64,000 bases of DNA from Armatimonadota bacterium. GTDB lineage: Bacteria > Sysuimicrobiota > Sysuimicrobiia > Sysuimicrobiales > Humicultoraceae. The DNA lies in the NCBI GenBank assembly GCA_037443365.1, contig JBBIOM010000006.1, forward strand, positions 8,642 through 72,641, read 5' to 3'. The notes beneath the pieces were generated by a model. The model did not search any database. It saw only the letters and a list, made by a program, of their open reading frames with translations, and was not told where the DNA came from. The translations under genes and the position numbers were made by a program. Below, piece after piece: positions 854 through 20,292 of this stretch (position 1 is the stretch's first letter; each line of letters opens with the position of its first letter).

Positions 854-1452
854 GCCTCCTCCACGGCAGCGCAGATCGCGTGTCCGATGGCGATGTGCGC
901 CTCCTGAATCAGCGCGGTCTCATCCGAGGGCGCGCGAAGCGCCACATCGGCTAGCGCCGCAAGCCCGCCGCCGTCCCGGCCGGTCATTGCGATGACCGCG
1001 GCACCCCTGCGCCGGGCTGCCTGGGCCCCCTCAACCGCGCTCGCGGATTCGCCGCTCGTGGAGATCGCCATCACCACGTCGCCCGGGCGGACCAGCGCCT
1101 CGACCTGGCGCGCGAAGACCTGGGCGTATCCGAAGTCGTTGGCGATCGAGGTGAGCACCGAGGTATCCGTCGTGAGGGCGACCGCCGGGATCGGCGCCCT
1201 TGGGCGGGAGAACCTTCCCACGTACTCGGCCGCGAGGTGCTGGGCGTCGGCGGCCGATCCGCCGTTGCCCAGCAGGAATACCCTCCCGCCGCAGGTGACG
1301 GACTCGATGACCAGGCAAGCCGCGGCGGCGATCTTCTCGGCCTCAAGCAACAGGCACTCCTGCCTGACCGCGATGCCCGCGGCGAGGTGCGCCCTCACGC
1401 GCTCAAGCGCCGTCTCATCGCCCCGCACGCGGGCACGCTCATCTTCGGTCAT
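802..1452 (-). CDS. gmhA: Phosphoheptose (sedoheptulose-7-phosphate) isomerase, SIS domain
   Basis: Motifs GNGGSAADAQHLAAE, NDFGY..VFARQV, ISTSG, IQEAH. Start placed at ATG 1452. Confidence 0.9.
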   Translation of the reverse strand: MTEDERARVRGDETALERVRAHLAAGIAVRQECLLLEAEKIAAAACLVIESVTCGGRVFLLGNGGSAADAQHLAAEYVGRFSRPRAPIPAVALTTDTSVLTSIANDFGYAQVFARQVEALVRPGDVVMAISTSGESASAVEGAQAARRRGAAVIAMTGRDGGGLAALADVALRAPSDETALIQEAHIAIGHAICAAVEEAWLSGRAGDPGEAAGYP

Positions 1453-1577
1453 GACGAGCACCTGTTCGCCGCCGCCCGAAGGGTTCCTGGCGGTAAGGTG
1501 CCTGGGGCCACCCTGGAGGGGTCCCGGGCCCCGGATAGAACTTCTGACGTGATCCAATCTCAAGGAGGAAGCTCTCG

Positions 1578-2582
1578 ATGTCGCGATTGCTTGCATTCCT
1601 GCTCTTGGTTGTCCTGCTGCTCCCGGCATCCCCAGCGAGGGCGCAGGCGCCGTCACTGACCGTGTATTCCAGCGTGGACGAGGAGAACGCCCGCAAGATC
1701 CTGGGCGCGTTCAGCCGGGCCACCGGTATCGAGGCGCGGATAACCTTCCTTTCGACCGGTCCGGCCTTGGCGCGGCTGGAGGCCGAGCGCGGCAATCCCC
1801 AGGCGGACGTCTGGTTCGGCGCGCCGAGCGAGAACCACGTGGACGCCAAGATCCGCGGGCTCACCCAGCCCTACGCCTCACCGGGTGCCGCGGCGCTCGA
1901 CGCCCGGTTCCGCGACCCGGAGAACTACTGGGTGAGCTTCTACATGAACCCGCTGGGGTTTGGTCTGAACACCAAGGTGCTGGACGACCGTAGAATCAAG
2001 CGGCCGCTCTCCTGGCAGGACCTGCTCAGCCCCCAGCTCCGAGGGTTGATCCAGATGCCGAGCCCGCAGACCTCGGGAACCGCCTACAACATGGTGGTCT
2101 CTCTGGTGCAGATCATGGGCGAGGACAAGGCGTTTGCGTACATGCGGCAGCTCCATCCCAACATCCAGACCTACACCACCAGCGGGACAGCACCTTCGCG
2201 CGCGGTGGCGTTCGGCGAGGTGGCCATAGGCATCCAGTTCACACCCGCGCTCTACCAGCTCTACTTCCGCGGGTACCCCTTGCTTACGGTCTTCCCCAAG
2301 GAGGGCGTGGGTTTTGAGGCGCCGGCGATCTCGATCGTCAAGGGAACGCGGCGCGAGGCCGAGGCCCGGCGGCTCGTGGACTGGATGATCTCTCCCGAAG
2401 GGCAGAACAGTCTGGCCGAGCACGAGACCTTCTTCTTCCCGGTGAGCGAGAAGGCAAAGCGGCAGCCCGGCCTGCCCGCGCTGCGCCTGGTCCCGCTCAT
2501 CAAATACGACGTGGACTTCGCGGGCAAGAACCGCGTGCGCCTGGTGAACCGCTGGCTCAACGAGGTGCTGGGCGGCCGCTAG
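1578..2582 (+). CDS. ABC transporter substrate-binding protein, AfuA/FbpA-like
   Basis: Signal peptide; motifs NPQADVW, PQTSGTAY, EGVGFE; AGGAGG RBS. Confidence 0.9.
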   Translation: MSRLLAFLLLVVLLLPASPARAQAPSLTVYSSVDEENARKILGAFSRATGIEARITFLSTGPALARLEAERGNPQADVWFGAPSENHVDAKIRGLTQPYASPGAAALDARFRDPENYWVSFYMNPLGFGLNTKVLDDRRIKRPLSWQDLLSPQLRGLIQMPSPQTSGTAYNMVVSLVQIMGEDKAFAYMRQLHPNIQTYTTSGTAPSRAVAFGEVAIGIQFTPALYQLYFRGYPLLTVFPKEGVGFEAPAISIVKGTRREAEARRLVDWMISPEGQNSLAEHETFFFPVSEKAKRQPGLPALRLVPLIKYDVDFAGKNRVRLVNRWLNEVLGGR

Positions 2583-2585
2583 GGC

Positions 2586-4286
2586 ATGTGCAGCGCTGGG
2601 GTTGCCGACGCGGGTCTCCCCCAGGGCAGGGGAGGCCTGCGTCGGCTGCTCGCCGATCCGGTCATACTGCTGGCGGCCGCGCTGATCCAGGCCGCGCTGC
2701 TGATCTTCATCATCTGGCCGCTCATCCGTGTCCTGGTTGTCAGTCTCACACCGGGCGGAGTGCTGTCACTGGACGCGTACCGCGACCAGTTGCGGTCGTG
2801 GTACGTGCAGCGGGCCGTGGTCAACAGCCTGATGGTAGGCGGGTTGACCGCGGCGGTCAGCGTGGCGCTCGGGTTCGCCTACGCCTACACGCTGGTCCGC
2901 ACGGCCGTCCCGCTCAAACGACTGTTCCATCTGCTGGCGATCCTGCCGATCGTCTCGCCGCCGTTCGTTTCGTCAATCGCGATCATCCTGTTGTTCGGCC
3001 GGGGCGGGATCGTGACCTCGGGGCTGCTGGGCCTGAGGGACTTCAACATCTACGGCTTCAAGGGGCTGCTGCTGGCGCAGGTGATGACCTTTGCGCCCGT
3101 GGCCTACCTGGTGCTCCGCGGGGTGCTGGAGGGGATTGACCCAACCCTGGAGGACGCCGCGCTCAACCTGGGGGCGCGGCGCTGGACGGTCTTTCGCCGT
3201 GTGCTCCTGCCCCTGGCGGTCCCCGGAATCACGAGCGCGTTCCTGGTGGTGTTTATCGAATCGCTGGCCGACTTCGGGAACCCCCTGCTGCTGGCCGGGA
3301 GCGCGTTCCCGGTGCTGTCGGTGCAGGCCTACCTGCAGATCACAGGCATGTTCAACCTGCAGGCGGGCGCGGCGCTGTCGGTGCTGCTGCTCGCCCCGTC
3401 GGTCGGCGCATTCGTTCTCTACCGGCTCATCGTGGGGAGACGGCGCTACGTGACCGTGACGGGCAAGCCTGGCCGGTCGTCGCTCAAGGCCACGAGCCCG
3501 ACGGCTACGTGGCTGCTGTTCGGCGTCACCGCGGCCACCGCCGGGGTCGTTGTCATGTTCTACGGGGTCATCGTGGCCGGCGCGCTCGCGCGCACCTGGG
3601 GCGTGGACAACACGCCGTCGCTTGAGGCGCTGCGGTACGTGCTCGTCGTGGGGCGCGAGACGATAAGGGACACGCTGGCCATAGCGGTCACCGCCACCCC
3701 GATCTCCGGCCTGCTGGGCATGACCATAGCGTTCCTGGTCGTGCGCCGGAAGTTCCCCGGGCGGGGCGGGCTCGAGCTGACGTCGCTGCTCAACTTCGCG
3801 CTACCGGGCACCGTGGTTGGCATCGGCTACATCCTGGCGTTCAACCAGCGGCCGCTGCTGTTGACCGGCACCATGGCGATCCTGGTGGCCTGCTTCGTTT
3901 TCCGTTATGTGCCCGTGGGGATTCAGGCGGGCATCGCCGTCCTCCGGCAGATAGACCCTTCGATCGAGGAGGCGGCGCAGAACCTGGGGGCATCCAGCGT
4001 GGTGACCTTCCGACGCGTCACGCTGCCGCTCGTACGGCCGGCGTTCTTCTCGGCCCTGGTCTTTGCGTTCGTGCGGGCGATGACCGCGATCAGCGCCGCG
4101 GTATTCCTGGTATCGGCTAACTGGAACCTGATGACCGTGCAGATCCTAAGCGAGGTGGGGTCGGGCCGGTACAACGCCGCCGCCGCCTACAGTCTGGTTC
4201 TGCTGGCGCTGGTGATCGTGGCCATCGGGATCATCGGGCTGCTGCTCCGGCGTGGATACAGCCCGGTGCAGGGGAGGTTTCTCTGA
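2586..4286 (+). CDS. ABC transporter permease, FbpB/AfuB type (two EAA loops)
   Basis: Polytopic membrane protein with EDAALNLGA and EEAAQNLGA motifs. Confidence 0.92.
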   Translation: MCSAGVADAGLPQGRGGLRRLLADPVILLAAALIQAALLIFIIWPLIRVLVVSLTPGGVLSLDAYRDQLRSWYVQRAVVNSLMVGGLTAAVSVALGFAYAYTLVRTAVPLKRLFHLLAILPIVSPPFVSSIAIILLFGRGGIVTSGLLGLRDFNIYGFKGLLLAQVMTFAPVAYLVLRGVLEGIDPTLEDAALNLGARRWTVFRRVLLPLAVPGITSAFLVVFIESLADFGNPLLLAGSAFPVLSVQAYLQITGMFNLQAGAALSVLLLAPSVGAFVLYRLIVGRRRYVTVTGKPGRSSLKATSPTATWLLFGVTAATAGVVVMFYGVIVAGALARTWGVDNTPSLEALRYVLVVGRETIRDTLAIAVTATPISGLLGMTIAFLVVRRKFPGRGGLELTSLLNFALPGTVVGIGYILAFNQRPLLLTGTMAILVACFVFRYVPVGIQAGIAVLRQIDPSIEEAAQNLGASSVVTFRRVTLPLVRPAFFSALVFAFVRAMTAISAAVFLVSANWNLMTVQILSEVGSGRYNAAAAYSLVLLALVIVAIGIIGLLLRRGYSPVQGRFL

Positions 4287-5398
4287 TGTTGGCGCATGAG
4301 ACCCCACCATCCGCGGGCGAGATATCCCTGCGCGTGGAGCGCGTGACCAAGGTATTCGCCGACCCCACCGGCGCGCCGGTGACTGCGGTGGACGACGTGT
4401 CCCTCGCGGTGGAGGCCGGGGAGTTCGTGTCGCTGCTGGGCCCGAGCGGCTGTGGCAAGACCACGCTGCTGCGCGTGATCGCCGGCTTCGAGACGCCGAC
4501 CGCCGGTGAGATAGAACTTGGGGGGCAGCGCGTGACGCACCTGCCGCCCGACGCGCGCGGGACCGCCATGGTCTTCCAGTCCTACGCGCTCTTTCCGCAC
4601 CTGGACGTCTTCGAGAACGTGGCGTTCGGGCTCCGGGTGCGCGGGACGGATGAAGCCGAGACGCGCCAGCGCGTCACCGACGCCCTGGCGCTGGTCGGGC
4701 TCGAAGGCCTCTCCAGGCGCTCCCCCGATCAGCTCAGCGGCGGGCAGCAGCAGCGGGTCGCCGTGGCACGGGCCGTGGTCACCCGGCCCCGTGTGCTGCT
4801 CCTGGACGAGCCCCTGTCCAACCTCGACGCCAAGCTGCGCGAGCAGATGCGCGTGGAGTTGCGGCGCATTCAGCGCGAGGTCGGGATCACGGCGATCTAC
4901 GTCACGCACGATCAGGTTGAGGCGATGACCCTGGCCGATCGCATCGTGGTGCTGGACCGTGGGCGCGTGCAGCAGGTCGCCTCGCCCGCGGAGCTCTACG
5001 CGCGCCCGGCTAACGCCTTCGTGGCCGCGTTCGTCGGCAAGGTCAACCTGCTGGAGGGGCGGGTCCTGGAGACCCGGGATGGGGCCTGCCGCGTGGCGCT
5101 GCCCGCGATGGAAGCCGTGGTGCCCCTGGCGCGCCCGATCGCAACCGGCGCGCGCGTGGGCGTTGTGGTCCGTCCCGAGACCGTGCACCTGGCGCGCGAG
5201 GGAGCCTTGCGCGGCACGGTGCGCCGCGCCGTCTACCTGGGTTCACAGGTGGAATACGAGGTCGAGGTGGGAGGGACACTCCTGCAGGCCATCGGCCGGA
5301 GCCCCCTCGAGGAAGGGATATTCCGCGAAGGCGAGGGCGTGGGCGTGTCGATTGGCTTCCAGGTCGCCCACCTGCTCGATCTGGAGGGTGGGGCCTAG
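4286..5398 (+). CDS. ABC transporter ATP-binding protein (PotA/FbpC type, TOBE domain)
   Basis: Motifs GPSGCGKT, LSGGQQQR, LLLDEPLSNLD. Confidence 0.95.
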   Translation: MLAHETPPSAGEISLRVERVTKVFADPTGAPVTAVDDVSLAVEAGEFVSLLGPSGCGKTTLLRVIAGFETPTAGEIELGGQRVTHLPPDARGTAMVFQSYALFPHLDVFENVAFGLRVRGTDEAETRQRVTDALALVGLEGLSRRSPDQLSGGQQQRVAVARAVVTRPRVLLLDEPLSNLDAKLREQMRVELRRIQREVGITAIYVTHDQVEAMTLADRIVVLDRGRVQQVASPAELYARPANAFVAAFVGKVNLLEGRVLETRDGACRVALPAMEAVVPLARPIATGARVGVVVRPETVHLAREGALRGTVRRAVYLGSQVEYEVEVGGTLLQAIGRSPLEEGIFREGEGVGVSIGFQVAHLLDLEGGA

Positions 5399-5820
5399 AG
5401 GCCCCGTATGACCACGGCTCCGTTCTCGGTCTTGATCCGTCCCAGGAACTCGTGGAACCCGTCCATCTGGCCCAGCAGGCTCACCGTTCCCCTGGTGTGC
5501 GCCAGCCGGATCACCGGGCTGAACGGCCCGGTCGTGATGGAAGTGATGTCCTTCGGCTCCAGCGCCGTCCGCCGCAGCATCGCCCGGAAGACGATGGGCT
5601 CTCCAGGCCTGCAGGTGATCTCGAACGGCGTCGAGAGGTAGACGTACCAGGCCCACAGCAGGGCGAAGACCCAGGCCGCGGCGAAGATCGCCATGGGAAG
5701 ACGGGACTCGTAGAGCTTGGGCAGCTGCGCCATGACCATGGGGCCTACGAATATGGTCAGGATGACGAGCAGCGAGAAGTGGAAGATGAGCGTGCCCCTG
5801 GCCGTCCGGTATGTGGTCAC
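5395..5820 (-). CDS. Hypothetical membrane protein (two TM helices plus a small soluble domain)
   Basis: AGGAGGT RBS before the GTG start, two hydrophobic segments, and it fills the gap between neighbouring genes. Confidence 0.7.
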   Translation of the reverse strand: MTTYRTARGTLIFHFSLLVILTIFVGPMVMAQLPKLYESRLPMAIFAAAWVFALLWAWYVYLSTPFEITCRPGEPIVFRAMLRRTALEPKDITSITTGPFSPVIRLAHTRGTVSLLGQMDGFHEFLGRIKTENGAVVIRGL

Positions 5821-5901
5821 AGGCCGTCACCTCCTTAGAGACTCCCCATGCACATTCCCGCCCGTTGCGCAGTTTCCCTGCGCACGGCCATGGAGGAACC
5901 G

Positions 5902-7884
5902 ATGAGCAGGCGTCCGATCGAGATAGAGGATCTCTTGAAGATACGCCTTCCCCACCAGGCCGCGCTCTCGCCCGACGGGGGCCGCGTGGTCTTTGCGCTG
6001 GCGCGCCTCGATTGCGAGGCCAACGAGATCAGGAGCCATCTGTGGATGGTGCCCACGTCTGGCGGGGCGCCGCGCCCATTCACCGGGGACGAGGCGCGCG
6101 ACGCCAGTCCTGTCTGGTCTCCGGACGGCCAGTGGATAGCGTTCCTGTCCAGCCGGGGCGGCAGGCGGCGCGGCCGCAGGCGCGCGGCGATGCAGCTGTG
6201 GGTCATGCCCTCCGACGGCGGGGAAGCGCGGCAGTTGACCTTCTTCAAGGCCGGCGTGAGTCAGCCGGCTTGGTCGCCTGACGGGCAGGCGCTCGCCTTT
6301 GTCTCGCGGGGAGATCCCGGCGAGGTCGAGACCGCGGACGCCGACGAAGAGATGATCGTCCGGGAGATAACCCGCCCGAAGTACAAGTTCGACGCGATGG
6401 GGTTCCTCGAGGGGTACGCCCACGTCTGGACCGTCCCCCGCGCAGGTGGGGAGCCGGTCCGGCTGACCGAGGGCGACCACGATCACGATTCGCCGGCGTG
6501 GCTGCCGGGTGGGCGCGAGGTGGTGTTCATCGCCAACCGCACACCCGAGGCGGACCTGTCGTTCGTGCGCGATCTCTGGGCCGCGGATGCGCGGACGCGC
6601 GCGCTGCGCCAGATCACGCGCAGCACCGGGCCGACCGTCTCGCCGGCGCCCTCGCCGGACGGCCGCTGGGTGGCATTCGTTGGGCACGACTTCCACGCCA
6701 AGAGCGCGACGAACTTCGGCGTGTGGGTCGTGCCGTCTTCGGGCGGCGAGGCGGTCAACCTCACGGCCGGGCTAGATCGATCGGTGGGGAACGCGGTGGG
6801 CAGCGATGTGCGCCTGGCCCCGATGTTCCCGACCATAGCCTGGACGCATGACGGCGGCGCGGTGCTGTTCTACGCCACCGATGCCGGCCGCACGAATCTC
6901 TACAGCGTGGGGCTGGCGGATCGCGCAGTCCAGAAGCTCACCAGCGGCGATGAGGTCATAGCCGATCTCACCGCGGCGGCCGGGCAGGTGGTCTACCAGC
7001 GCATCGGCCCGGCCGCGCTGGACGAGCTCTGGCTGCTCTCGGAATCGGGCTCGCCCCGTCGGCTCGCCGCCTTCAACGACGAGCTCATCTCCGGCCTCGA
7101 CCTCTGCGAGGGGCGGCACTTCGCCTACACGGCCTCCGACGGCTGGCCCATGGAGGGCTGGATGCTCACCCCGCCAGGCTTCGATCCCGGCAGGAAGTAC
7201 CCGGCGATACTGCGGATTCACGGAGGCCCGCACGCGGCCTACGGCTACGCTTTCAATCACTACGTGGCCCTGCTCGCGGCGGCGGGGTACGTCGTGGTGT
7301 GGACGAACCCGCGCGGCAGCCAGGGCTACGGCGAGGCGTTCACGCGGGCGGTCGTGAACGACTGGGGCGGCAAGGACAGCCAGGACATCCTCTGCGGGCT
7401 CGACCACGCCATCGCGGCGGGGTTCATTGACCCGGGCCGCGTGGCCGTCACCGGCGGCTCGTACGGCGGCTTCATGACCAACTGGCTGATCGGGCACACG
7501 CCGCGGTTCCGCTGCGCCGCGAGCGAGGTGTGCGTCAGCAACCTGTTCAGCTTCTACGGCACCAGCGACATAGGCGCCACGTGGGGCGAGCTGGAGTGGG
7601 GGGCGACGCCCTGGGACGACCCCGGCAAGCTGCTGCGGATGTCGCCCTTGATGTACGCGAAGAACGTCACCACCCCGGTGCTGATCATCGCCAACGAGGC
7701 CGATCACCGGTGCCCCGTCGAGCAGTCGGAGCAGTTCTACACGGCGCTGCGCAAGATGGGGAAGGAGGCGCAGTTCCTGCGGTTCCAGGGCGAGAGCCAC
7801 CAGATGAGCTCGAGCGGCCGGCCCAGGCCGCGGTTGGAGCGCCTGCGGAGGCTGGTTGCCTGGTTCGAAAGGTACCTCAAGTAG
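5902..7884 (+). CDS. S9 family peptidase (acylaminoacyl/dipeptidyl peptidase)
   Basis: WSPDG beta-propeller repeats, HGGPH, GGSYGG nucleophile motif, D-H-R-C and GESH. GGAGG RBS before ATG 5902. Confidence 0.95.
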   Translation: MSRRPIEIEDLLKIRLPHQAALSPDGGRVVFALARLDCEANEIRSHLWMVPTSGGAPRPFTGDEARDASPVWSPDGQWIAFLSSRGGRRRGRRRAAMQLWVMPSDGGEARQLTFFKAGVSQPAWSPDGQALAFVSRGDPGEVETADADEEMIVREITRPKYKFDAMGFLEGYAHVWTVPRAGGEPVRLTEGDHDHDSPAWLPGGREVVFIANRTPEADLSFVRDLWAADARTRALRQITRSTGPTVSPAPSPDGRWVAFVGHDFHAKSATNFGVWVVPSSGGEAVNLTAGLDRSVGNAVGSDVRLAPMFPTIAWTHDGGAVLFYATDAGRTNLYSVGLADRAVQKLTSGDEVIADLTAAAGQVVYQRIGPAALDELWLLSESGSPRRLAAFNDELISGLDLCEGRHFAYTASDGWPMEGWMLTPPGFDPGRKYPAILRIHGGPHAAYGYAFNHYVALLAAAGYVVVWTNPRGSQGYGEAFTRAVVNDWGGKDSQDILCGLDHAIAAGFIDPGRVAVTGGSYGGFMTNWLIGHTPRFRCAASEVCVSNLFSFYGTSDIGATWGELEWGATPWDDPGKLLRMSPLMYAKNVTTPVLIIANEADHRCPVEQSEQFYTALRKMGKEAQFLRFQGESHQMSSSGRPRPRLERLRRLVAWFERYLK

Positions 7885-7914
7885 AAGGAATCGCAGGCCC
7901 TCGGGGCGTAATAG

Positions 7915-7936
7915 TGGTCACTACCGGTAGTAACCA
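7915..7936. promoter_or_regulatory. Palindromic operator, probably for the adjacent GntR/UTRA regulator
   Basis: TGGTCACTACCGGTAGTAACCA is 20/22 palindromic and ends 12 bp before the gntR start. Confidence 0.6.
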
Positions 7937-7948
7937 GTCCGGGCGACG

Positions 7949-8707
7949 ATGAAGCTGCAGCGCCATCACACCATCCCACTTCACCGGCAGCTGGGTGCCG
8001 CGCTCACGCGCGCCATCCGGTCGGGCGAGATTCTGCCGGGCGGGCGCATCCCCTCTGAGCGTGAGATCTGCGAGGCCTATGGGGTCAGCCGCACGACGGT
8101 CCGGCAGACGATCCACGACCTGGTGGGCTCAGGCCTGCTGGAGCGCGTGCCGGCCAAGGGGACCTTCGTGGCGCGCCCCAAGATAGACCAGGACCTCTCG
8201 CGCGTGGTGCGCTTCTCAGACGCGGTCTCCGCGGCCGGATACAGGCCCGCGGCAAGGCTGCTTCGCACCGCCACCGCACCGGCGCCGGCCGCGGCCGCCA
8301 AGGCCCTGGGGCTGTCGCAGGGTGAGACGGTGGTCGTGGTGGACCTGGTCAGCACGGCCGACGGCGCGCCGCTGGCGTTCTACCGGATACACCTGCCCCC
8401 TGATACCGGGGAACCCACGGCGCGTGCCCTGCTGGCCGCGGAGGCCGAGGGCCGCGTGACCTTCGGGCTGGTGCTGGAGCACGTGCGCCGCGTTGCCGGG
8501 CTGGAGCCGGCCCAGGTCGTGCAGACCTACGAGGCCGCGCCTGCCTCGGAGGAGGTCGCCCGCGTTCTGCAGATCAAGGAGGGAACGCCGGTGGTGGCCA
8601 GTGCCCGGACCGTGCTTGCCGCGTCCGGGGAGCCGATTACGCACGATGACGCGTACTACCGCGGCGACCGCTATCGCTTCACGATCCGCCGCGCGTATTC
8701 GATTTGA
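7949..8707 (+). CDS. GntR family transcriptional regulator (HutC/UTRA)
   Basis: PSERE...YGVSRTTVRQ HTH, KGTFV, and a C-terminal YRGDRYRF UTRA domain. Confidence 0.93.
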   Translation: MKLQRHHTIPLHRQLGAALTRAIRSGEILPGGRIPSEREICEAYGVSRTTVRQTIHDLVGSGLLERVPAKGTFVARPKIDQDLSRVVRFSDAVSAAGYRPAARLLRTATAPAPAAAAKALGLSQGETVVVVDLVSTADGAPLAFYRIHLPPDTGEPTARALLAAEAEGRVTFGLVLEHVRRVAGLEPAQVVQTYEAAPASEEVARVLQIKEGTPVVASARTVLAASGEPITHDDAYYRGDRYRFTIRRAYSI

Positions 8708-8720
8708 GGAGGGAGAGACG

Positions 8721-10271
8721 ATGAAAGCGTTCGCTCGTCTGCTCACCGCAGTGACGCTGCTTGCCGTGGTTGCAGGTCTGCTGGCGCCTGCCGGCGCCCA
8801 GGACCGTGTGCTCGCCTTCGCCCTCGACACCGAGGCGTTCCGCAGGCCCGAGGCCGAGGCGATCGCCGACAACCTGCGCGCGATAGGCGCTCAGGTGGAG
8901 GTGCGCGTCTGGGAGCGCACCAGCATGATCGCCCGCATCCAGGCAGGCGAGCGCCTGGCCTACCTGACCGACTGGGGGAGCGCGTTCTTCGAGCCGTTCG
9001 ACCTGGCCGAGCCCAAGTTCACGACGCGTGGGCGGGGCAACTACTCGTTCTACTCCAACAAGGATGTGGACGGCCTGCTCGTGGTCGGCTCCACAGGGGC
9101 GGACAACGCCGCGCGCCGCGAGGCATACGTGAAGGTGCAGGAGATCCTGTTTCGCGAGGCGCCCTGGATCTTCGGGTACTTCCGTCAGGATACCCACGGG
9201 GCCAGCGCCGTCGTCGAGAACTGGGAAGCCTCGATGGACAGCCGCGTCAACCTGCACGACGTGCGCCTCAGCCGCGGCGGGGTCGCCGTGGTCGCGATGA
9301 ACACGAACGCGATCGTCACCTTCGATCCGGCGATGTTTCGCGACCGCAAGACCGAGACGGTGCTGCGCAACATCTTCGACGCACTGGTCACGCGGACCAC
9401 GAAGGACCGCGTGGTGCTCGAGCTGGCCTCGGCGATGCGCCAGCCCTCGCCCACGACCTACGAGTTCACGGTACGTTCGGGCGTGACCTTCCACAACGGC
9501 GATCCGCTCACCGCCGAGGACGTGGTCTTCACCTTTGAGCGGATCCTCAAGGACGGTGGGGTCGGAGGAGTGAGCAGCCCCCGCCGCGCGCTGCTGGGCC
9601 CGCTCGACCGTGTGGAGCGCGTGGGCGACAACGTCGTGCGGTTCACCCTGTCCAGCCCGTTCCCGGCCTTCCTGCAGGCGCTGGTGCACTTCCAGATCGT
9701 GCCCAAGCGCTACATCCAGACGGCCGGCGACCGAGCCTTCGCCGAGAGGCCGGTAGGGACCGGGCCGTTCAAGTACCTGGCCGGCCGCGTGGATTCCCAG
9801 ATCGTGCTGGAGCGCTACGAGAACTACTACGGCGGCGCGCCCGAACTGCCGCCGGTGGGCCCGGCGCCGCTGCGTGGCGTTGTGTTTCGGATGATGCCTG
9901 AGCCGGCAACGCGCGTGGCCGCGCTCAAGGCCGGCGAGGTGCACATCATCGAGGACCTGCCCGTGGACCTGATCACCGAGATCGAGCGCGATCCCCGCAC
10001 CGAGGTCAAGGCCACCCAGGGGACCCGCGCCTCGGGTGTCGAGCTGAACAACGCCCGTCCGCCGTTCAACGAGGTGAAGGTCCGCCAGGCCCTCAACCAC
10101 GCGGTCAACTGGGACGCTATCCTCAAGGCCATCTACAGGGGCTATGCCACCCGACTGGCGACGGCGTTCCTGCCCAGCGGGTTCGGCTACGACCCGCGCC
10201 TGAAGCCGTACCCCTTCGACCAGGCGCGGGCGCGGGCACTGCTGAGGGAGGCGGGCTACACGGTTCGGTAA
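8721..10271 (+). CDS. Peptide/nickel ABC substrate-binding protein (family 5), circularly permuted
   Basis: Signal peptide; motifs GVTFHNGDPLTAEDVVFT, PVGTGPF, RQALNHAVN. The usual C-terminal motifs lie at the N-terminus. Confidence 0.9.
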   Translation: MKAFARLLTAVTLLAVVAGLLAPAGAQDRVLAFALDTEAFRRPEAEAIADNLRAIGAQVEVRVWERTSMIARIQAGERLAYLTDWGSAFFEPFDLAEPKFTTRGRGNYSFYSNKDVDGLLVVGSTGADNAARREAYVKVQEILFREAPWIFGYFRQDTHGASAVVENWEASMDSRVNLHDVRLSRGGVAVVAMNTNAIVTFDPAMFRDRKTETVLRNIFDALVTRTTKDRVVLELASAMRQPSPTTYEFTVRSGVTFHNGDPLTAEDVVFTFERILKDGGVGGVSSPRRALLGPLDRVERVGDNVVRFTLSSPFPAFLQALVHFQIVPKRYIQTAGDRAFAERPVGTGPFKYLAGRVDSQIVLERYENYYGGAPELPPVGPAPLRGVVFRMMPEPATRVAALKAGEVHIIEDLPVDLITEIERDPRTEVKATQGTRASGVELNNARPPFNEVKVRQALNHAVNWDAILKAIYRGYATRLATAFLPSGFGYDPRLKPYPFDQARARALLREAGYTVR

Positions 10272-13373: not shown

Positions 13374-13595
13374 GTGCGTAGCCGCGCGCCGCTATCGGAC
13401 CAGGAGATACTGACGGTCGAGCAGGCGGCCGAGTACCTCCAGATCCACAGGATCACGCTCTACAGGTACATTCGCGAGGGACTGCTGCCAGCCGTCAGGC
13501 TGGGGAAGATGTACCGCCTCTTCCGCCGCGACATCGAGGCGTTCCTCGATACCCAGCGGCAGCGGGCCGAACCCGTCGAGGCCGGAGGAGAATGA
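13374..13595 (+). CDS. Excisionase-family (HTH_17) DNA-binding protein
   Basis: LTVEQAAEYLQIHRITLYRYIREGLLPAVRLG. Confidence 0.85.
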   Translation: MRSRAPLSDQEILTVEQAAEYLQIHRITLYRYIREGLLPAVRLGKMYRLFRRDIEAFLDTQRQRAEPVEAGGE

Positions 13596-14878
13596 CCCTC
13601 GCCGGTATCGGGGCCGCGCCCACCTTCAGGGCGCTGCGCCACCCGAACTACCGGCTGTTCTGGTGGGGCGGCCTCGTCTCCCTGACAGGATCCTGGGGCC
13701 AGACCACGGCCCTTTCCTGGCTCGTCTACGACCTAACCGGATCGCCCCTGATGCTGGGGACCGTGATGATGGTGAACACCATCCCCACCATGCTCCTGGC
13801 GCTCGTGGGAGGGGTCATCGCCGACCGGTCCGAGAAGCGCCACGTGCTCCTTGCAAGTCAGGGGACCTTCATGGCGATCTCGCTGGTCCTGGCGATCCTG
13901 ACGCTTGGGGGCCGGATAGCGGTCTGGCAGATCCTCGTGCTGGGCGCGATCGGGGGGATCGCCTCGGCGATAGACATGCCTGCCCGGCAGTCGCTGATCC
14001 CGCACCTGGTCGGGCGGGATGACCTGCTGAACGCCATAGCGCTGAACTCGGCGATGTTCAACGGATCGCGGATCATCGGCCCCGCGATAGCCGGGTTCAT
14101 CATCGGCGAGCTGGGCCCGCGCAGCGGTCCTGGGTTCTGCTTCGCCATCAACACGATCACCTACATGGCCGTGCTGGGCGCGCTTGCCACGATCCGCGTG
14201 AACTCCCGGCCGCCCTCTGGTCGGCGGCAGCGCGTGCTGCGCGAGGTCCGGGAGGGCGTGGCCTTCGCCTGGCAGCAGCGGGCGGTGCGCCGGTTCCTGG
14301 GGCTTCTGGCTGTCACGGGCGTGTTCGGGCTGTCGTTCACGGTCCTGATGCCGGTCTTCGCGCGCGACGTGCTGCGCGTGCCCGCCCAAGGGTTCGGGAT
14401 GCTGATGACCGCAAGCGGGCTGGGCGCCACGATCGGGGTGCTCGCGCTGGCCTCGTCAAGGCCCCAGAGCCCGGGGAACGTCATCATGGGCACGCAGGCC
14501 GCGTTCGTCGTACTCCTGGCCGCGTTCGCGTCAAGCTCGACCTACGCCCTGTCGCTGGCGCTCATGGTTGCGTTGAGCGGCGCGATGACCTCCTACCTGT
14601 CCTCCACCAACACGACGATCCAGGCAATCGTGCCGGATGCGCTGCGCGGCCGCGTGATGAGCATCTACATACTGGCGTTCTTCGGCACCGCGCCGCTGGG
14701 AGGCCTGCTCATGGGATCCCTGGCCTCGGCCGCGGGCGCGCGGGCCGCGGTGCTCATCGGCGCGTCGGTGTGCGCCGCAGCAGGCCTGGCGGCCTGGCTG
14801 GCCGGCCGGAGGGACTCACCTGCCTGGGCGCAGGTGAGCGGTCCGCGCGGCGCGGATAGTCCCACGCTTCCTGTTTGA
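13592..14878 (+). CDS. MFS transporter
   Basis: About 12 TM segments; motifs FRALRHPNYR, GVIADR, IDMPARQ, LRGRVMS. Confidence 0.92.
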   Translation: MTLAGIGAAPTFRALRHPNYRLFWWGGLVSLTGSWGQTTALSWLVYDLTGSPLMLGTVMMVNTIPTMLLALVGGVIADRSEKRHVLLASQGTFMAISLVLAILTLGGRIAVWQILVLGAIGGIASAIDMPARQSLIPHLVGRDDLLNAIALNSAMFNGSRIIGPAIAGFIIGELGPRSGPGFCFAINTITYMAVLGALATIRVNSRPPSGRRQRVLREVREGVAFAWQQRAVRRFLGLLAVTGVFGLSFTVLMPVFARDVLRVPAQGFGMLMTASGLGATIGVLALASSRPQSPGNVIMGTQAAFVVLLAAFASSSTYALSLALMVALSGAMTSYLSSTNTTIQAIVPDALRGRVMSIYILAFFGTAPLGGLLMGSLASAAGARAAVLIGASVCAAAGLAAWLAGRRDSPAWAQVSGPRGADSPTLPV

Positions 14879-16591
14879 GCCGGCTCCGTACCGGGCCAGG
14901 TCGATCCGGCCCGAGCGTGCGAACCGCACGCCCTCACGGCGCAGCCGCCGCCTCTGCGCCGCGGCGAACTGGCGGTTGGCGAGGGTCCCGTCGCCGCGCA
15001 CAACGCGCCACCACGGCGCGGCTTCGCCGTCGGGCAGCGATGCCAGCGCCCAGCCAACGGTGCGCCCACCGTTTCGCAGCCCGACCATCCGGGCGATCTC
15101 GCCGTATGTGGTGACGCTCCCCGGCGGTATGCGCCGCACCGCGGCGTAGATGCGCTCGAACAGGCCGCGTGTTCCTGATCCGGGGGGGCCAGGCAGGCCG
15201 GGTCTGGTCATGGCATCATGGTCCAGGATCTCATTCAACTGCTCGACGCCGAGCCGCCCCGACGCCAGCGCAACCTCGCGCACTGTGCGGCCGGTCCGGG
15301 CGGCTTCGCCGGCGATCCTGGCCGCGGCGTCGTATCCGATGATTGGCGCGAGAGCCGCAGCCAGCATCGGGCCCTGCTCGACCAGCTCGGGTCCGCGACC
15401 GGTTGCCCGAAGCCCGCCCACGCACCGGCGGGCGAAGTTGCGCGATGCCGCGCCCAGCAGGGCGATCGCCCCGAGCAGGTTGTGAGCCATCACGGGCATC
15501 ATCGTGTTGAGCTCGAAGTTGCCCCACTGGTTGCCCTGGGCCACCACGGCGTCACCCCCGATGGCCTGGGCGCAGGCCTGGATGACCGACTCGGCGATGA
15601 CCGGGTTTGTCTTGCCCGGCATGATCGAGGACCCGGGCTGTACCGCCGGAAGCACCAGCTCGCCAAGACCAGCGTGTGGCCCAGATCCCATCCAGCGAAT
15701 GTCGTTGGCGATCTTGGCCAGCGCGGTGGCGTATGTCCGGACGGCTCCCGAGCAGAAGACCACCGCGTCCAGGCAGGCCTGCGCCTGGAAGTGCGCCGCG
15801 GTTTCACGCAGCGGGATGCCGGTTATCTCACCCAGGCGCGCGCACACCCGGGCCGCGAACTCGGGATGCGCGTTCATGCCCGATCCCACGGCGGTACCGC
15901 CCAGCGCCACCTCGCACAGCTCGGCCTCGGCGTAGCCGATCCTGCGCCCGGCGGACGCGACCTGGTCGGCGTATCCGGCGAACTCCTGCCCCAACCGCAC
16001 CGGCGTGGCGTCCATCAGGTGCGTGCGTCCTGTCTTTGTGATCGCGTGGAACTGGCGCGCCTTCTTGCGCAGCGCCGCCTCCAGCTCGTCGAGCGCCGGA
16101 CGCAGGTCCTCGCGCAGCAACAGGAGCGCCGCCAGGTGCAGCGCGGTGGGGATGACGTCGTTGCTCGACTGGCAGAGGTTCACGTGATCGTTGGGATGCA
16201 CGGCCCCGCCGCCGCGCGCGGCGCCCATCAGCTCGGCGGCGCGGGCGGCTATGACCTCGTTGGCGTTCATGTTCGTGGACGTGCCCGATCCGGTCTGGAA
16301 GACGTCGAGCGGGAACTCGGCGTCGAGCGCGCCGTCGGCGACCTCCTTGGCCGCGCGGATGATGGGCCTCGCGAGCCTGCGGTCGAGCAGACCCAGGTCG
16401 GCGTTGACCTCGGCCGCGGCGCGCTTGATCAGGCCCAACGCGCGCACGAACACGCGCGGGAAGCGCAGGCCGCTGATCGGGAAGTTCACAATGGCTCGGG
16501 CGGTAGCCGCGCCGTAGTAGGCCCGGGCCGGGACCTCCACGCTCCCCATGGAATCGCGCTCGAGGCGCGTCCTTCTCTTGCTGCCCGGCAT
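14816..16591 (-). CDS. fumC: Class II fumarate hydratase fused to a C-terminal alkyltransferase-like (ATL/MGMT-family) domain
   Basis: FumC motifs FQTGSGTSTNMN, GRTHLMDATP, GSSIMPGKTNP, followed in frame by IPPGSVTTYGEIA...RTVGWAL...PWWRVV. Confidence 0.88.
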   Translation of the reverse strand: MPGSKRRTRLERDSMGSVEVPARAYYGAATARAIVNFPISGLRFPRVFVRALGLIKRAAAEVNADLGLLDRRLARPIIRAAKEVADGALDAEFPLDVFQTGSGTSTNMNANEVIAARAAELMGAARGGGAVHPNDHVNLCQSSNDVIPTALHLAALLLLREDLRPALDELEAALRKKARQFHAITKTGRTHLMDATPVRLGQEFAGYADQVASAGRRIGYAEAELCEVALGGTAVGSGMNAHPEFAARVCARLGEITGIPLRETAAHFQAQACLDAVVFCSGAVRTYATALAKIANDIRWMGSGPHAGLGELVLPAVQPGSSIMPGKTNPVIAESVIQACAQAIGGDAVVAQGNQWGNFELNTMMPVMAHNLLGAIALLGAASRNFARRCVGGLRATGRGPELVEQGPMLAAALAPIIGYDAAARIAGEAARTGRTVREVALASGRLGVEQLNEILDHDAMTRPGLPGPPGSGTRGLFERIYAAVRRIPPGSVTTYGEIARMVGLRNGGRTVGWALASLPDGEAAPWWRVVRGDGTLANRQFAAAQRRRLRREGVRFARSGRIDLARYGAGSNRKRGTIRAARTAHLRPGR

Positions 16592-16603
16592 GCGCGAACC
16601 TCC

Positions 16604-16873
16604 TTACTGCCGGTAGATCTCCGCCCGATGCCGGACGCGATGGAGGACGACGTCCGACCCCGCGATGTCGTACCTGACCCGGTAGGGCCACATCTCAAGC
16701 CGCCACTGACCTACCCCCTTGCCCTTGAGCTTCTTGATCCTGGGCGGAGGACCGCATGGGATGGTCTCAAGAGGCCGGACCGCTTCGATGACGCGCGCCC
16801 GTACGGCCGGGGGAAGCGCTTCGAGGTCACGCAGAAAGCTCGGGGTGAGCCGGACGACGAAGCGGGACGGCAT
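16604..16873 (-). CDS. Type II toxin, RelE/ParE family
   Basis: 89 aa, basic, with IKKLKG...WRL..WPYRVRY; directly downstream of an antitoxin. Confidence 0.85.
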   Translation of the reverse strand: MPSRFVVRLTPSFLRDLEALPPAVRARVIEAVRPLETIPCGPPPRIKKLKGKGVGQWRLEMWPYRVRYDIAGSDVVLHRVRHRAEIYRQ

Positions 16874-16876
16874 CGT

Positions 16877-17164
16877 TCAGCGACTCCGCCGTCGGGACAG
16901 CGTGCGCCGCACGTATTCCCTCAGGCTGATGGCCTCGCCGGCCTTGTGCTCGGCTGCCGCCACTCGCAGGGTCTCCTGGAACTCGGGGTCGAGCTCCTCC
17001 AGCATGTCGTCGAAGTCCGTCGTCCCGATGAGCACGGCCGTCGGGCGGCCCCTGCGGGTGATGACGTAGCGCGCCTTCCGCTCAGCCACCCGCTTGAGGA
17101 GCGCTCCGAGCTGGGTCCGGGCGAGGTAGGCCGGGATCGTGGCTGTTGGGTTTCTCTTCTGCAT
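16877..17164 (-). CDS. Type II antitoxin, Phd/YefM family
   Basis: ARTQLGALLKRV...YVITRRGRPTAVLI followed by an acidic C-terminal part. Confidence 0.88.
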   Translation of the reverse strand: MQKRNPTATIPAYLARTQLGALLKRVAERKARYVITRRGRPTAVLIGTTDFDDMLEELDPEFQETLRVAAAEHKAGEAISLREYVRRTLSRRRSR

Positions 17165-17233: not shown

Positions 17234-17321
17234 GGCCCTCGGCCAGAAAGCATTCGCGCGAGCCGCGCCATCCGTGCTACCATGCTGGCTGCCAGGAAGA
17301 GGTCAGGTCCCGGAGCGCCAC

Positions 17322-18431
17322 ATGAAACTCCACGAGTACCAGGCCAGAGAGATCTTCGCCCGATACGAGATCCCGGTGCGCCCAGGCGTTGTCATCGAGC
17401 GGCCCGAGCAGCTCGACGGGCTCGGGATCCCCTACCCGATCGTTCTCAAGGCGCAGGTCCTAGTCGGCGGCCGGGGGAAGGCGGGCGGGATCAAGATGGC
17501 CGCGACTCTCCCCGAGGCGCGCGAGAAGGCGGCCGCGATCCTGGGGATGACGATCAAGGGCGAGACCGTTCGCCGCCTGCTCGTCGTGGAGGCCGCGGAG
17601 ATCACCGCCGAGTACTACCTGGCGTTCACCGTGGACCGCGCGGCTCGGCGGTTGGTGGCGATCGCCTCGGCGGCCGGGGGCATTGACATCGAGGAAGTCG
17701 CCCGGGCCTCCCCAGAGAAGATCGTCAAGCACCACGTTGATCCTTTCGGGGGGTTCTATCCCTACAACGCGCGCGAGATGGGCCGGAAGCTGGGCCTGGA
17801 GGGCCGGTGCTTGCTGGAGTTCGCCGCGATCGCGCACGCGCTCTGGCGCCTGTGCCGTGAGATGGACGCCGAGCTGGCCGAGATCAACCCGCTGGGGGTG
17901 GTGGGCGGCTCGCTGCTGGCCGTAGACGCCAAGCTGGTCATTGACGACAACGCCGCATTCCGCCACCCGGGGCTGCCGCGCAGCGAGGAGTTGACCGATC
18001 TGGAGGCGCTGGCGAAGAGCCAGGACCTGGCCTACGTCGAGCTCGACGGCGACGTGGCGATCATCGGCAACGGGGCCGGCCTCGTGATGTCCACGCTCGA
18101 TGCGATCGCGCACTTCGGCGGCCGCCCGGCCAACTTCCTGGACGTGGGCGGCGGGGCGACCAGCGAGAACATGGCACAGGCGATGCAGATCGTGCTGCGC
18201 AAGAGCGGCGTGCGCGCGCTGTTCGTCAACATCTTCGGCGGGATCACCCGCTGCGACGACATCGCCCGCGCGATCGCCGCGGCGCCGCCTCCGGTGCCGA
18301 TGGTGGTGCGACTGACCGGAACCAACGAGGAAGAAGGCCGGACGATCCTGCGGGCCGCAGGGATCCAGGCGCTCACCGATCCGGAGTCCGCCGCCCGGGA
18401 AGCCGTGCGCCTGGCCGCCGGGGCGCGGTGA
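17322..18431 (+). CDS. sucC: Succinyl-CoA synthetase beta subunit
   Basis: Motifs MKLHEYQA, GGRGKAGG, EINPL, GNGAGL, PANFLDVGGG, NIFGGI. Confidence 0.96.
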   Translation: MKLHEYQAREIFARYEIPVRPGVVIERPEQLDGLGIPYPIVLKAQVLVGGRGKAGGIKMAATLPEAREKAAAILGMTIKGETVRRLLVVEAAEITAEYYLAFTVDRAARRLVAIASAAGGIDIEEVARASPEKIVKHHVDPFGGFYPYNAREMGRKLGLEGRCLLEFAAIAHALWRLCREMDAELAEINPLGVVGGSLLAVDAKLVIDDNAAFRHPGLPRSEELTDLEALAKSQDLAYVELDGDVAIIGNGAGLVMSTLDAIAHFGGRPANFLDVGGGATSENMAQAMQIVLRKSGVRALFVNIFGGITRCDDIARAIAAAPPPVPMVVRLTGTNEEEGRTILRAAGIQALTDPESAAREAVRLAAGAR

Positions 18432-18435
18432 CCGG

Positions 18436-19401
18436 GTGAGCCGCCGCGTGTTCTCGCCTTTGGGTCTTGGTGCTCCCGGACGCGCGCTGGCACGGCGCGC
18501 GCTTGCCTGCGCCGCGCTGCTGGTCGGGCTCGCCCTGGCGGCGCAGGCCGCCCTGCTCTTGTTCGGGCAGCCCCTCGCCGCGCAGATCGCACCGTCGGGC
18601 CCGCCTGCGCGTCACGTCATCCTGCTCAGCCTCGACGGCGCACGCGCCGACGCCGTCAGGGCCGCAGTACCCCTGGCCCTGGCAGGTCGCGGGGCCGTGA
18701 CCTGGACCGCGCAGACCACCCTTCCGAGCTCGACCCTGCCCGCGCACGCCTCGATGCTCTCGGGAGTGGGCCCGGCAGTTCACAGGGTGACCTTCAACGA
18801 CTGGCGGGCCGGTGAGCCCTACTTCGCGCGCGCCACCATCTTCACGGAGGTCACACGCGCAGGAGGCCGAGCCGCGGCCCTTGTCACGAAGCCCAAGATG
18901 ATGTTCTTCGTGCCGCCGGGAGTGGTCGCCAGCGCCCAGCACCTGCTCTACCCACGTCTGCGCCAGGCCGACGTGGTGGAGAGCGCCTCACGCCTCTTCC
19001 TCGAGCAGCGGCCTGCCCTGCTCTTCGTGCACGTCACGGACCCAGACGATACCGGTCACCGGCATGGCTGGATGAGCGAGGAGTACCTGCGTGTGATCGC
19101 CGCGACTCCAGATCTGATCGAGCGCCTGCTGCGTGCCCTCGACGATGCCGGGGTGGCGGCCAGGGCCCTGCTGATCGTCACCGCGGACCACGGCGGATCG
19201 GGCATCGCGCACGGCACGAACCGACCCGAGGACATGACGATCCCCTGGATGGCGTTCGGCGGCGCGGCCCGGCGCGGGGTGGTGGTCGAGCGGCGCGTCG
19301 TGGTGTTCGACACGGCCGCGACCGTGCTGGAGGCGTTGGGCGTTCCGATACCGGGTGACTGGCAGGGCGCGCCGGTGCACGAAGCGCTGCAGAGGCCGTA
19401 G
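18436..19401 (+). CDS. Alkaline phosphatase superfamily protein (NPP-like), probably exported
   Basis: N-terminal hydrophobic segment; motifs LSLDGARAD, TLPAHASM, DDTGH, TADHGG. Confidence 0.85.
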   Translation: MSRRVFSPLGLGAPGRALARRALACAALLVGLALAAQAALLLFGQPLAAQIAPSGPPARHVILLSLDGARADAVRAAVPLALAGRGAVTWTAQTTLPSSTLPAHASMLSGVGPAVHRVTFNDWRAGEPYFARATIFTEVTRAGGRAAALVTKPKMMFFVPPGVVASAQHLLYPRLRQADVVESASRLFLEQRPALLFVHVTDPDDTGHRHGWMSEEYLRVIAATPDLIERLLRALDDAGVAARALLIVTADHGGSGIAHGTNRPEDMTIPWMAFGGAARRGVVVERRVVVFDTAATVLEALGVPIPGDWQGAPVHEALQRP

Positions 19402-19425
19402 TCCAGGAGGAGCACGGAGGAGCCG

Positions 19426-20292
19426 ATGGCCATTCTCATCAACGAGCACACCCGCGTCCTGGTTCAGGGCATCACCGGCTTTCAGGGCGAGTTCCACACG
19501 CGCCGGATGTTGGAGTTCGGCACCCAGGTGGTGGCCGGCTCGACCCCGGGAAAGGGCGGCCAGGTCGTGGCCGGCGTTCCGGTGTTCGACACGGTTGCCG
19601 AGGCCGTGGCCAAGACCGGCGCTGGCGCCTCGTGCATCTTCGTGCCCGCGCGCGCGGCCCTGGACGCGGCGATGGAGGCGATCGCATCCCGGCTGGATCC
19701 GGTAGTGATCATCACCGAGCACGTCCCCATCCACGACTCGATCGAGATGGTGGACGCGGCGCGCGCCGCCGGCGTGCGCATCGTCGGGCCGAACGGCCCG
19801 GGCGTGGTCTCTCCCGGGCGGTGCAAGATCGGCATCATGCCCAACCATCTGTTCGCGCCCGGGGGCGTGGGGCTGGTCTCGCGCAGCGGCACGCTCACAT
19901 ACGAGATCGTGGCCGGCCTGACGCGCGCCGGCCTGGGACAGAGCACCGCCCTGGGCCTGGGCGGCGATCCGGTCGTGGGCCTGACGTTCCAGGAGGCGGT
20001 GGCGCTCTTCTCGGAAGACCCACAGACCCAGGCGATCGTCCTTGTGGGCGAGATCGGCGGGGCCGCCGAGGAAGAGGCCGCCCGCTTCATCAAGACCTCC
20101 GTGCGCAAGCCCGTCGTGGGATACGTCGCCGGCCGGACCGCGCCGCCCGGCAAGCGCATGGGCCACGCGGGCGCGGTGATCTCCGGGAGCGAGGGGGGAG
20201 CGCAGGCCAAGATCGAGGCGCTGCAGGCCGCCGGGGTCGCCATGGTAGAGCTCCCCTTCCAGGTGCCGGAGGTCCTGCGGGGGCTGCTGTAG
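19426..20292 (+). CDS. sucD: Succinyl-CoA synthetase alpha subunit
   Basis: Motifs VQGITG, GPNGPG, SRSGTLTYE, GEIGG, KRMGHAGA. Confidence 0.96.
   Translation: MAILINEHTRVLVQGITGFQGEFHTRRMLEFGTQVVAGSTPGKGGQVVAGVPVFDTVAEAVAKTGAGASCIFVPARAALDAAMEAIASRLDPVVIITEHVPIHDSIEMVDAARAAGVRIVGPNGPGVVSPGRCKIGIMPNHLFAPGGVGLVSRSGTLTYEIVAGLTRAGLGQSTALGLGGDPVVGLTFQEAVALFSEDPQTQAIVLVGEIGGAAEEEAARFIKTSVRKPVVGYVAGRTAPPGKRMGHAGAVISGSEGGAQAKIEALQAAGVAMVELPFQVPEVLRGLL

Follow-up and report, generated by a model that had tools for sequence, protein, structure and literature searches.

Can an enzyme of central metabolism and a sensor of alkylated DNA have become one protein in a bacterium, and, if so, was the union favored by selection? 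The question is raised by a 64,000-nucleotide stretch of DNA (positions 8,642 to 72,641 of contig JBBIOM010000006.1, assembly GCA_037443365.1; hereafter the window) in which a single open reading frame (ORF) joins a class II fumarase to an alkyltransferase-like (ATL) domain. The genome of the window (G000), that of an uncultured subsurface bacterium, is a metagenome-assembled draft in 69 contigs that is 97.7% complete. We conclude that the in-frame join is real. The account that we favor, and that we hold to be probable though well short of certain, is that it represents a species-specific fusion of operon neighbors that is tolerated or nearly neutral, with both activities retained and no new mechanism involved.

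The fused ORF occupies positions 14816..16591 on the minus strand and runs for 591 aa from an ATG start to a TGA stop. Three Pfam domains share its single open frame, namely Lyase_1 (residues 16-345, 311 bits), FumaraseC_C (residues 410-463, 64 bits), and DNA_binding_1 (residues 478-555, 72.7 bits against a cut-off of 27), a combination that is far beyond chance. The class II fumarase part extends over residues 1-465 (15197..16591, minus strand), with GRTH at residues 188-191, the SS-loop signature GSSIMPGKTN, located by motif search, at residues 320-329 (15605..15634, minus strand), and DHDAMTRPG ending at residue 465. There follow a 12-residue Pro/Gly linker, PGLPGPPGSGTR (residues 464-475; 15167..15202, minus strand), placed by alignment of the junction with those of congeners, and the core of the ATL domain (residues 476-569, GLFERIY...DLARYG; 14885..15166, minus strand), as defined by the DNA_binding_1 match, by structure-sequence matches, and by its fold. 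The core contains TTYGEIA (residues 494-500), GGRTVG(WAL) (508-513), and PWWRV (526-530; 15002..15016, minus strand), the last being the ATL counterpart of the alkyl-acceptor motif PCHRV. Within the linker the sequence reads as a run of seven G residues on the plus strand (15182..15188; C7 on the coding strand). An earlier description of the window (the original prediction) had pointed out this ORF, its motifs, and the G7 run, and every element that it named proved to be in place.

The original prediction had also cautioned that the open frame might be an indel artefact at the G run, a concern that finds no support in two independent, gap-free contigs. An independent assembly of the probable source run yielded a 3965-nt contig, at a word depth of about 38, that spans positions 14600-16280 with no differences and no gaps. 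In a second sample, a 567-nt contig spans positions 14955-15521 with three substitutions and no gaps. Two of the three are synonymous (ATL codons 523 and 524), and the third, Pro469Thr in the linker, results from a G>T change at position 15187 that interrupts the G7 run. Since the run is broken in the second sample and no indel accompanies the break, an error in run length cannot explain the open frame. Because of the same interruption we rejected phase variation at the run, which we had entertained. Moreover, a one-base shift at the run would lead to a stop only about 100 codons on in one frame and to none within about 170 codons in the other, and between the linker and the first ATL helix there is no stop and no ATG, GTG, or TTG. 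Because shifted frames meet no stop near the junction and no ATL start precedes the first helix, a single-base indel would not restore a normal gene pair. We also considered independent translation of the ATL part and judged it unlikely: the first in-frame ATG, GTG, or TTG past the linker is a GTG at Val486, which lies inside the first helix. The in-frame fusion is thus real and does not depend on the G7 run.

A different arrangement is seen in the closest relatives. Seven other genomes of the same genus were available, and the junction is visible in five of them (G001, G002, G003, G005, and G006); in G007 a contig end truncates the ATL match, and G004 gave a weak match to a second DNA_binding_1 gene alone. 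In all five visible junctions a Pro/Gly-rich tail (…MTEPG.RG..GG.) precedes the TAG or TAA that closes fum, and atl restarts at an ATG or GTG a few codons past that stop, in the same frame in four cases and in a shifted one in G003. The linker of the fused gene stands where these congeners carry the end of fum, the TAG or TAA stop, a short spacer, and the start of atl. For example, GGA TCA GGA ACA CGC GGC CTG TTC in G000 corresponds to GGA TCC GGG TAG AGC GGC TCC GTG ATG GGT CTG TTC in G001; the fused junction is 12 nt shorter, and stop and start are both gone. Compared with its congeners as a group, G000 differs at the junction by a multiple of three plus several substitutions. The fum–atl spacer is short, G-rich, and repeat-prone in the genus, and we regard it as unstable because in G002 it is filled by an 18-nt in-frame tandem repeat of 3.3 copies with the consensus CAGGGCGTGGGGGTCCAG (locus L009, 2914-2973).

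When the search was widened to 94 genomes of the phylum, G000 alone gave an uninterrupted match across the junction (one of 92 if the unpublished G015 and G024 are left out). The fusion therefore appears to be derived and confined to one species. A recent loss of a stop codon, which the original prediction had allowed for, is what the comparison with congeners brings out, both the fum stop and the atl start having been lost in G000. The "Rosetta stone" fusion that it had proposed finds no support as a conserved architecture: fused forms are absent from all five congeners with a visible junction and from all 93 other genomes of the phylum (91 without G015 and G024), and the large collections yielded none. 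The original prediction had itself set separate fum and atl ORFs in close relatives against its proposal, and separate ORFs are what all five visible junctions contain.

How rare is the architecture beyond the phylum? The search for further FumC plus DNA_binding_1 architectures that had been recommended gave none among the matches listed in protein, genome, and metagenome collections. These searches were shaped by word sharing, length windows, and collapse at 50% identity, and their negative results hold for the queries used. The ATL query, run against a collection of 5.8 billion clusters with protein length set to 325-1035 aa, returned eight matches, among which PF00206 and PF01035 occurred together only in the query itself; in the others ATL was joined to an AlkD-type glycosylase, to PF04250, to cyclophilin plus HEAT, or to TPR. 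A 191-aa query spanning the junction was run against a representative library of 1.84 billion proteins, and its best 150 matches measured 96-342 aa, none of them fumarase-length. Among the best 80 loci of a scan of a genome collection, all of them fumarases of other phyla with at most 63% identity, the fumarase part alone was matched; 78 of the matches end by residue 480, and the other two reach residues 493 and 504, ending before the ATL motifs begin. Likewise, none of the 80 loci listed in a metagenome scan was fused. One metagenome locus (L180; query residues 3-176, 34% identity) was taken up as a fused candidate and rejected as an ordinary 243-aa Ogt with PCHRV. Fumarase–ATL is, on these searches, a new domain combination for the ATL family.

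The steps that brought the two genes together can be followed in related genomes. In G014 a single strand carries, in order, fum, sdhA, sdhB, an ORF, sdhA, sdhB, and atl (locus L028, G014:C1:484000-494500; 1046-9376, plus strand), with atl starting 4 nt past sdhB. The order fum, sdhAB once or twice, and then atl recurs in G041, G012, G020, and G013, and sdhAB adjoins atl in G017, in G010, and in two metagenome contigs. By comparison, fum and sdh genes are absent within 5 kb of atl in G023 and in four genomes from a second family (f4) of the order, and the single contig, 2.1 kb long, that represents a third family (f3) likewise shows none. Nor does an ATL gene lie within 3 kb of any of the 80 fumarase loci of other phyla. 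Because the linkage is absent from f4, G023, the short f3 contig, and the fumarase loci of other phyla, the association of fum and sdh with atl is evidently a trait of one family, inherited by descent. In the genus of G000, fum and atl are direct neighbors and sdh no longer stands between them; the one sdhA of G000 is on contig C1. This neighborhood history ends with the fusion. The two sdhA–sdhB pairs of the related genera differ in sequence, being 37-47% identical to each other (tblastn cross-matches), and the ORF between them encodes 250 aa without a Pfam match.

What kind of enzyme is the N-terminal part? Among solved structures it is class II fumarate hydratases that match it best, the Mycobacterium tuberculosis enzyme (Rv1098c, PDB 6s43) scoring 445 bits over the full length, against 397 bits for the best aspartase. 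In an alignment with the K-12 sequences it is 46% identical to E. coli FumC and 38% identical to AspA. Four of five motifs compared are of the FumC type (QTGSGT, QSSNDV, GRTHLMDAT, and GNFELN; the AspA counterparts are QGGAGT, QSTNDA, GRTQLQDAV, and GQLQLN). We take these four stretches to discriminate FumC from AspA, on the basis of a single E. coli pair and of the literature. The GSSxMPxKxN loop is present alongside Lyase_1 and FumaraseC_C. Judged by its sequence, then, the N-terminal part is a fumarase-type class II enzyme. The genome also encodes the alpha subunit of a class I fumarase, on contig C2, and the fused enzyme is therefore not necessarily the sole fumarase of this bacterium.

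For the C-terminal part, the closest solved proteins are Vibrio parahaemolyticus vpAtl (2kif, E = 2.1e-17) and Schizosaccharomyces pombe Atl1 (3gva, E = 1.5e-14), with true alkyltransferases well behind. Tyr496, Arg510, and Trp527 align to Tyr25, Arg39, and Trp56 of Atl1, whose roles, according to the review PMC10779285, are those of the tyrosine that flips the base, the arginine finger, and the tryptophan standing in for the cysteine. The Tyr496 and Arg510 columns are invariant across 65 aligned sequences, and PWWRV aligns to PWHRV of Atl1, PWFRV of vpAtl, and PCHRV of Ada, the acceptor cysteine being replaced by tryptophan. The ATL domain begins right after the linker, without the N-terminal domain of AGT. 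The separate atl ORFs of the congeners measure 93-139 aa from the LFERIY motif to the stop. A structure predicted for residues 462-591 alone, built on the 65 aligned sequences, has a mean predicted local distance difference test score (pLDDT) of 82.4, with core blocks at 81-96 and values of about 51 in the first ten modelled residues (462-471, partly linker) and in the last twenty. Its top Foldseek matches are again 2kif (template modelling score, TM, 0.81) and then 3gva (TM 0.78). A full-length MAFFT alignment for folding was dropped, as it smeared the short ATL sequences over the fumarase part at 11-20% identity to the query. Among the best 150 representatives, 142 bear a recognizable motif; tryptophan occupies the cysteine position in 134 of these, and 33 have exactly PWWRV. 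The domain is an ordinary member of a large ATL family. Elsewhere in the phylum, an ATL-like match (50% identity; G081:C128:7593-7919) falls within an open frame given as 595 aa long that contains one internal TGA.

The genome contains uvrA and, on contig C30, a separate Ogt gene with PCHRV. The Ogt gene is a 227-aa ORF (locus L003, 1489-2169, minus strand) that follows closely on a uvrC-like gene, with uvrA about 2.5 kb away. Over residues 1-42 it matches the Phd/YefM antitoxin family (37.8 bits; cut-off 29.8), which may reflect either another fusion or a start codon placed too far upstream.

To gauge selection we compared G000 with its congeners and obtained ratios of nonsynonymous to synonymous substitution (dN/dS) of 0.20-0.28 for fum and 0.13-0.38 for atl. 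Both halves have been under purifying selection over the whole path since divergence. Both parts look functional, because the fumarase motifs are intact, the key residues and the predicted fold of the ATL domain are kept, dN/dS is low, and uvrA is present.

These observations can be accommodated in a simple sequence of events. In the family, atl stands at the 3' end of a citric acid cycle cluster composed of fum, sdhAB, and atl. In the genus, fum and atl would have become direct neighbors, with nothing between them but a stop codon, a G-rich spacer a few codons long, and the start of atl. In the species of the window, where the junction is 12 nt shorter than that of the most divergent congener, a small in-frame loss would then have removed stop, spacer, and start, turning the fumarase's own Pro/Gly-rich C-terminal tail into a linker to the ATL domain. 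From the known behavior of the two families, the product would be a fumarase tetramer with four flexibly tethered ATL domains, in which the fumarase part would still interconvert fumarate and malate and the ATL part would still bind O6-alkylguanine and pass it to UvrABC excision repair.

Several points weigh against this reading or narrow it. First, the support for the join consists of assembled contigs of public runs, and both samples come from one study. Second, the representative library was collapsed at 50% identity, so that fused members could hide behind unfused fumarase representatives. Third, the N-terminal part falls below the cut-off of the NCBIfam fumC equivalog TIGR00979 (506.6 versus 664.75) and just passes that of the NCBIfam "aspartate ammonia-lyase" subfamily model PRK12273 (522.9 versus 510). 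These profile scores leave the name of the enzyme unsettled, and because the one model is missed while the other is passed we have kept to "fumarase-type class II enzyme." Fourth, the dN/dS values span the whole path of divergence (dS about 0.5-1.0), from which the period after fusion is not separable. Fifth, the 591-aa protein is a predicted product. Finally, the position of atl beside fum or sdh in at least seven genomes of six genera could reflect a functional link, which would favor an adaptive origin of the fusion.

That adaptive alternative is the one that survives best, although we think it unlikely. It holds that a real functional link underlies both the fusion and the position of atl, across the family, at the end of the fum–sdh cluster: the ATL domain might bring the tetramer to alkylated DNA and so shift local fumarate and malate, or the tetramer might provide multivalent binding to lesions. 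Besides the gene order just mentioned, which extends to two metagenome contigs, it can draw on the literature: a class II fumarase of B. subtilis is induced by DNA damage and co-localizes with DNA (PMC5711358), class I fumarases of E. coli affect alkylation repair through the action of fumarate and alpha-ketoglutarate on AlkB (bioRxiv 10.1101/2020.08.04.232652), and fusions of ATL or AGT domains with repair nucleases are regarded as functional (PMC10779285). Set against this, the fused form occurs in one of 94 genomes of the phylum, the genes are separate in every congener with a visible junction, and the linkage is limited to one family, with no instance in the four f4 genomes, in G023, or at the 80 fumarase loci of other phyla. 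Furthermore, no AlkB (PF13532) was found in the 97.7%-complete genome; as no other bacterial target of fumarate in alkylation repair has been named, the route from fumarate to AlkB is without a target here. The genome also encodes a class I fumarase alpha subunit. A broader version, in which atl was kept in the fum–sdh operon throughout the lineage because the two work together and selection then tethered the tetramer to O6-alkylguanine, strikes us as quite unlikely; if it were true, the expected gain would be either multivalent binding to lesions or control of fumarate and malate locally, at the sites of damage. That fumarase and alkylation repair are linked in function is, in sum, possible but unsupported, and the proposal that fumarase is tethered to alkylated DNA for a purpose would go beyond the data, which fit a tolerated fusion at least as well.

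We also give little credence to the idea that one half is decaying, whether because tethering harms the ATL domain (for example, by blocking the hand-off to UvrA) while the true Ogt compensates, or because the enzyme is in fact an aspartase. The Ogt gene on C30, a second DNA_binding_1 gene with PCHRV, and the class I alpha subunit on C2 indicate that either half may be partly redundant, and the best NCBIfam model to be passed is that of the aspartate ammonia-lyase subfamily. Nevertheless, G000 keeps all the invariant and nearly invariant ATL columns, both ATL substitutions in the second sample are synonymous, and dN/dS is as low as 0.13-0.38. The unfused congeners likewise carry atl together with a weaker second DNA_binding_1 match like that of the G000 ogt, and an aspartase is at odds both with the four of five diagnostic stretches that match E. 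coli FumC rather than AspA and with the solved relatives, among which class II fumarases lead (445 versus 397 bits). Least credible of all, and in our view very improbable, is that the genes are separate in the cells and that metagenome assembly or binning produced the open junction in error. In its favor, the draft is in 69 contigs, the sequence at the junction is G/C-rich and repeat-prone and includes a 7-base homopolymer, and coverage of the region is by contigs alone. But a second assembler gives the identical junction, a strain-level variant in a second sample is open there without an indel and with the homopolymer broken, a normal gene pair would not result from a single-base indel at the run, and the congeners differ by a multiple of three, together with several substitutions.

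The surroundings of the fused gene have features of their own. A ribosome-binding-like AAGGAGG (16599..16605, minus strand) lies 7 nt upstream of its ATG and overlaps the TAA stop of an upstream ParE-like gene (ORF 16604..16873). The latter belongs to a ParE-toxin/Phd-YefM-antitoxin pair (16604-17164, minus strand) directly upstream on the same strand; with the ParE stop codon 12 nt ahead of the ATG, all three genes may be co-transcribed. At the other end, residues 570-591 (14819..14884, minus strand) form a variable basic tail that is modelled with low confidence and differs from the tails of the congeners. The last 63 nt of the gene, stop included (14816-14878), overlap the 3' end of a convergent gene for an MFS_3-family transporter (13592..14878, plus strand), and it is where this overlap lies in G000 that congener ATL tails vary in length and sequence. 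Farther upstream (17274-20292, plus strand), sucC (17274-18431) and sucD (19426-20292) are split by a gene of the type I phosphodiesterase/nucleotide pyrophosphatase family (18436-19401), an unusual insertion between the subunits of succinyl-CoA synthetase.

On the reading that we prefer, that of a tolerated fusion of operon neighbors, the interest of the locus is twofold. It displays three stages of fusion by spacer loss, from cluster members kilobases apart, through direct neighbors, to one gene. Also, should the 591-aa protein be produced with both halves working, it would be a ready-made natural construct for asking whether fumarase at damaged DNA matters, a question that stems from work on fumarase in the DNA damage response. 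As known at present, the fusion is the variant of one species and can be explained without a new mechanism.

How, then, does the protein compare with known systems? With class II FumC enzymes (Rv1098c, 6s43; E. coli FumC) it shares a match over the full length, FumC-type motifs, and the SS loop; it differs in having 126 additional residues (linker, ATL domain, and tail) and in falling below the fumC equivalog cut-off and above that of the aspartase subfamily. With stand-alone ATLs (Atl1, 3gva; vpAtl, 2kif; E. coli ATL) it has in common the single-domain fold, the tyrosine, the arginine finger, and the tryptophan, as well as the lack of an AGT N-terminal domain, whereas the G000 domain makes up the C-terminal portion of a 591-aa enzyme, lacks its own start codon, and reads PWWRV in place of PWHRV in Atl1 and PWFRV in vpAtl. 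A tie between fumarase and the handling of DNA damage is also known for Fum-bc of B. subtilis and for FumA and FumB of E. coli with AlkB (PMC5711358, bioRxiv 10.1101/2020.08.04.232652, and the review PMC13655608). Those systems act through metabolites (malate, fumarate, and alpha-ketoglutarate) and separate proteins, with no physical fusion mentioned there; the words "fusion" and "fused" do not occur in the review. The nearest parallels in architecture are the archaeal AGT–EndoV and ATL–EndoV proteins and AGT-2 of Caenorhabditis elegans, in which a domain of the alkyltransferase family is likewise joined to another function (PMC10779285). In the published AGT and ATL fusions covered there, the partners are DNA-acting or chromatin proteins, whereas the partner in G000 is an enzyme of central metabolism; and, unlike those fusions, that of G000 belongs to one species alone and places the ATL domain C-terminal to its partner.

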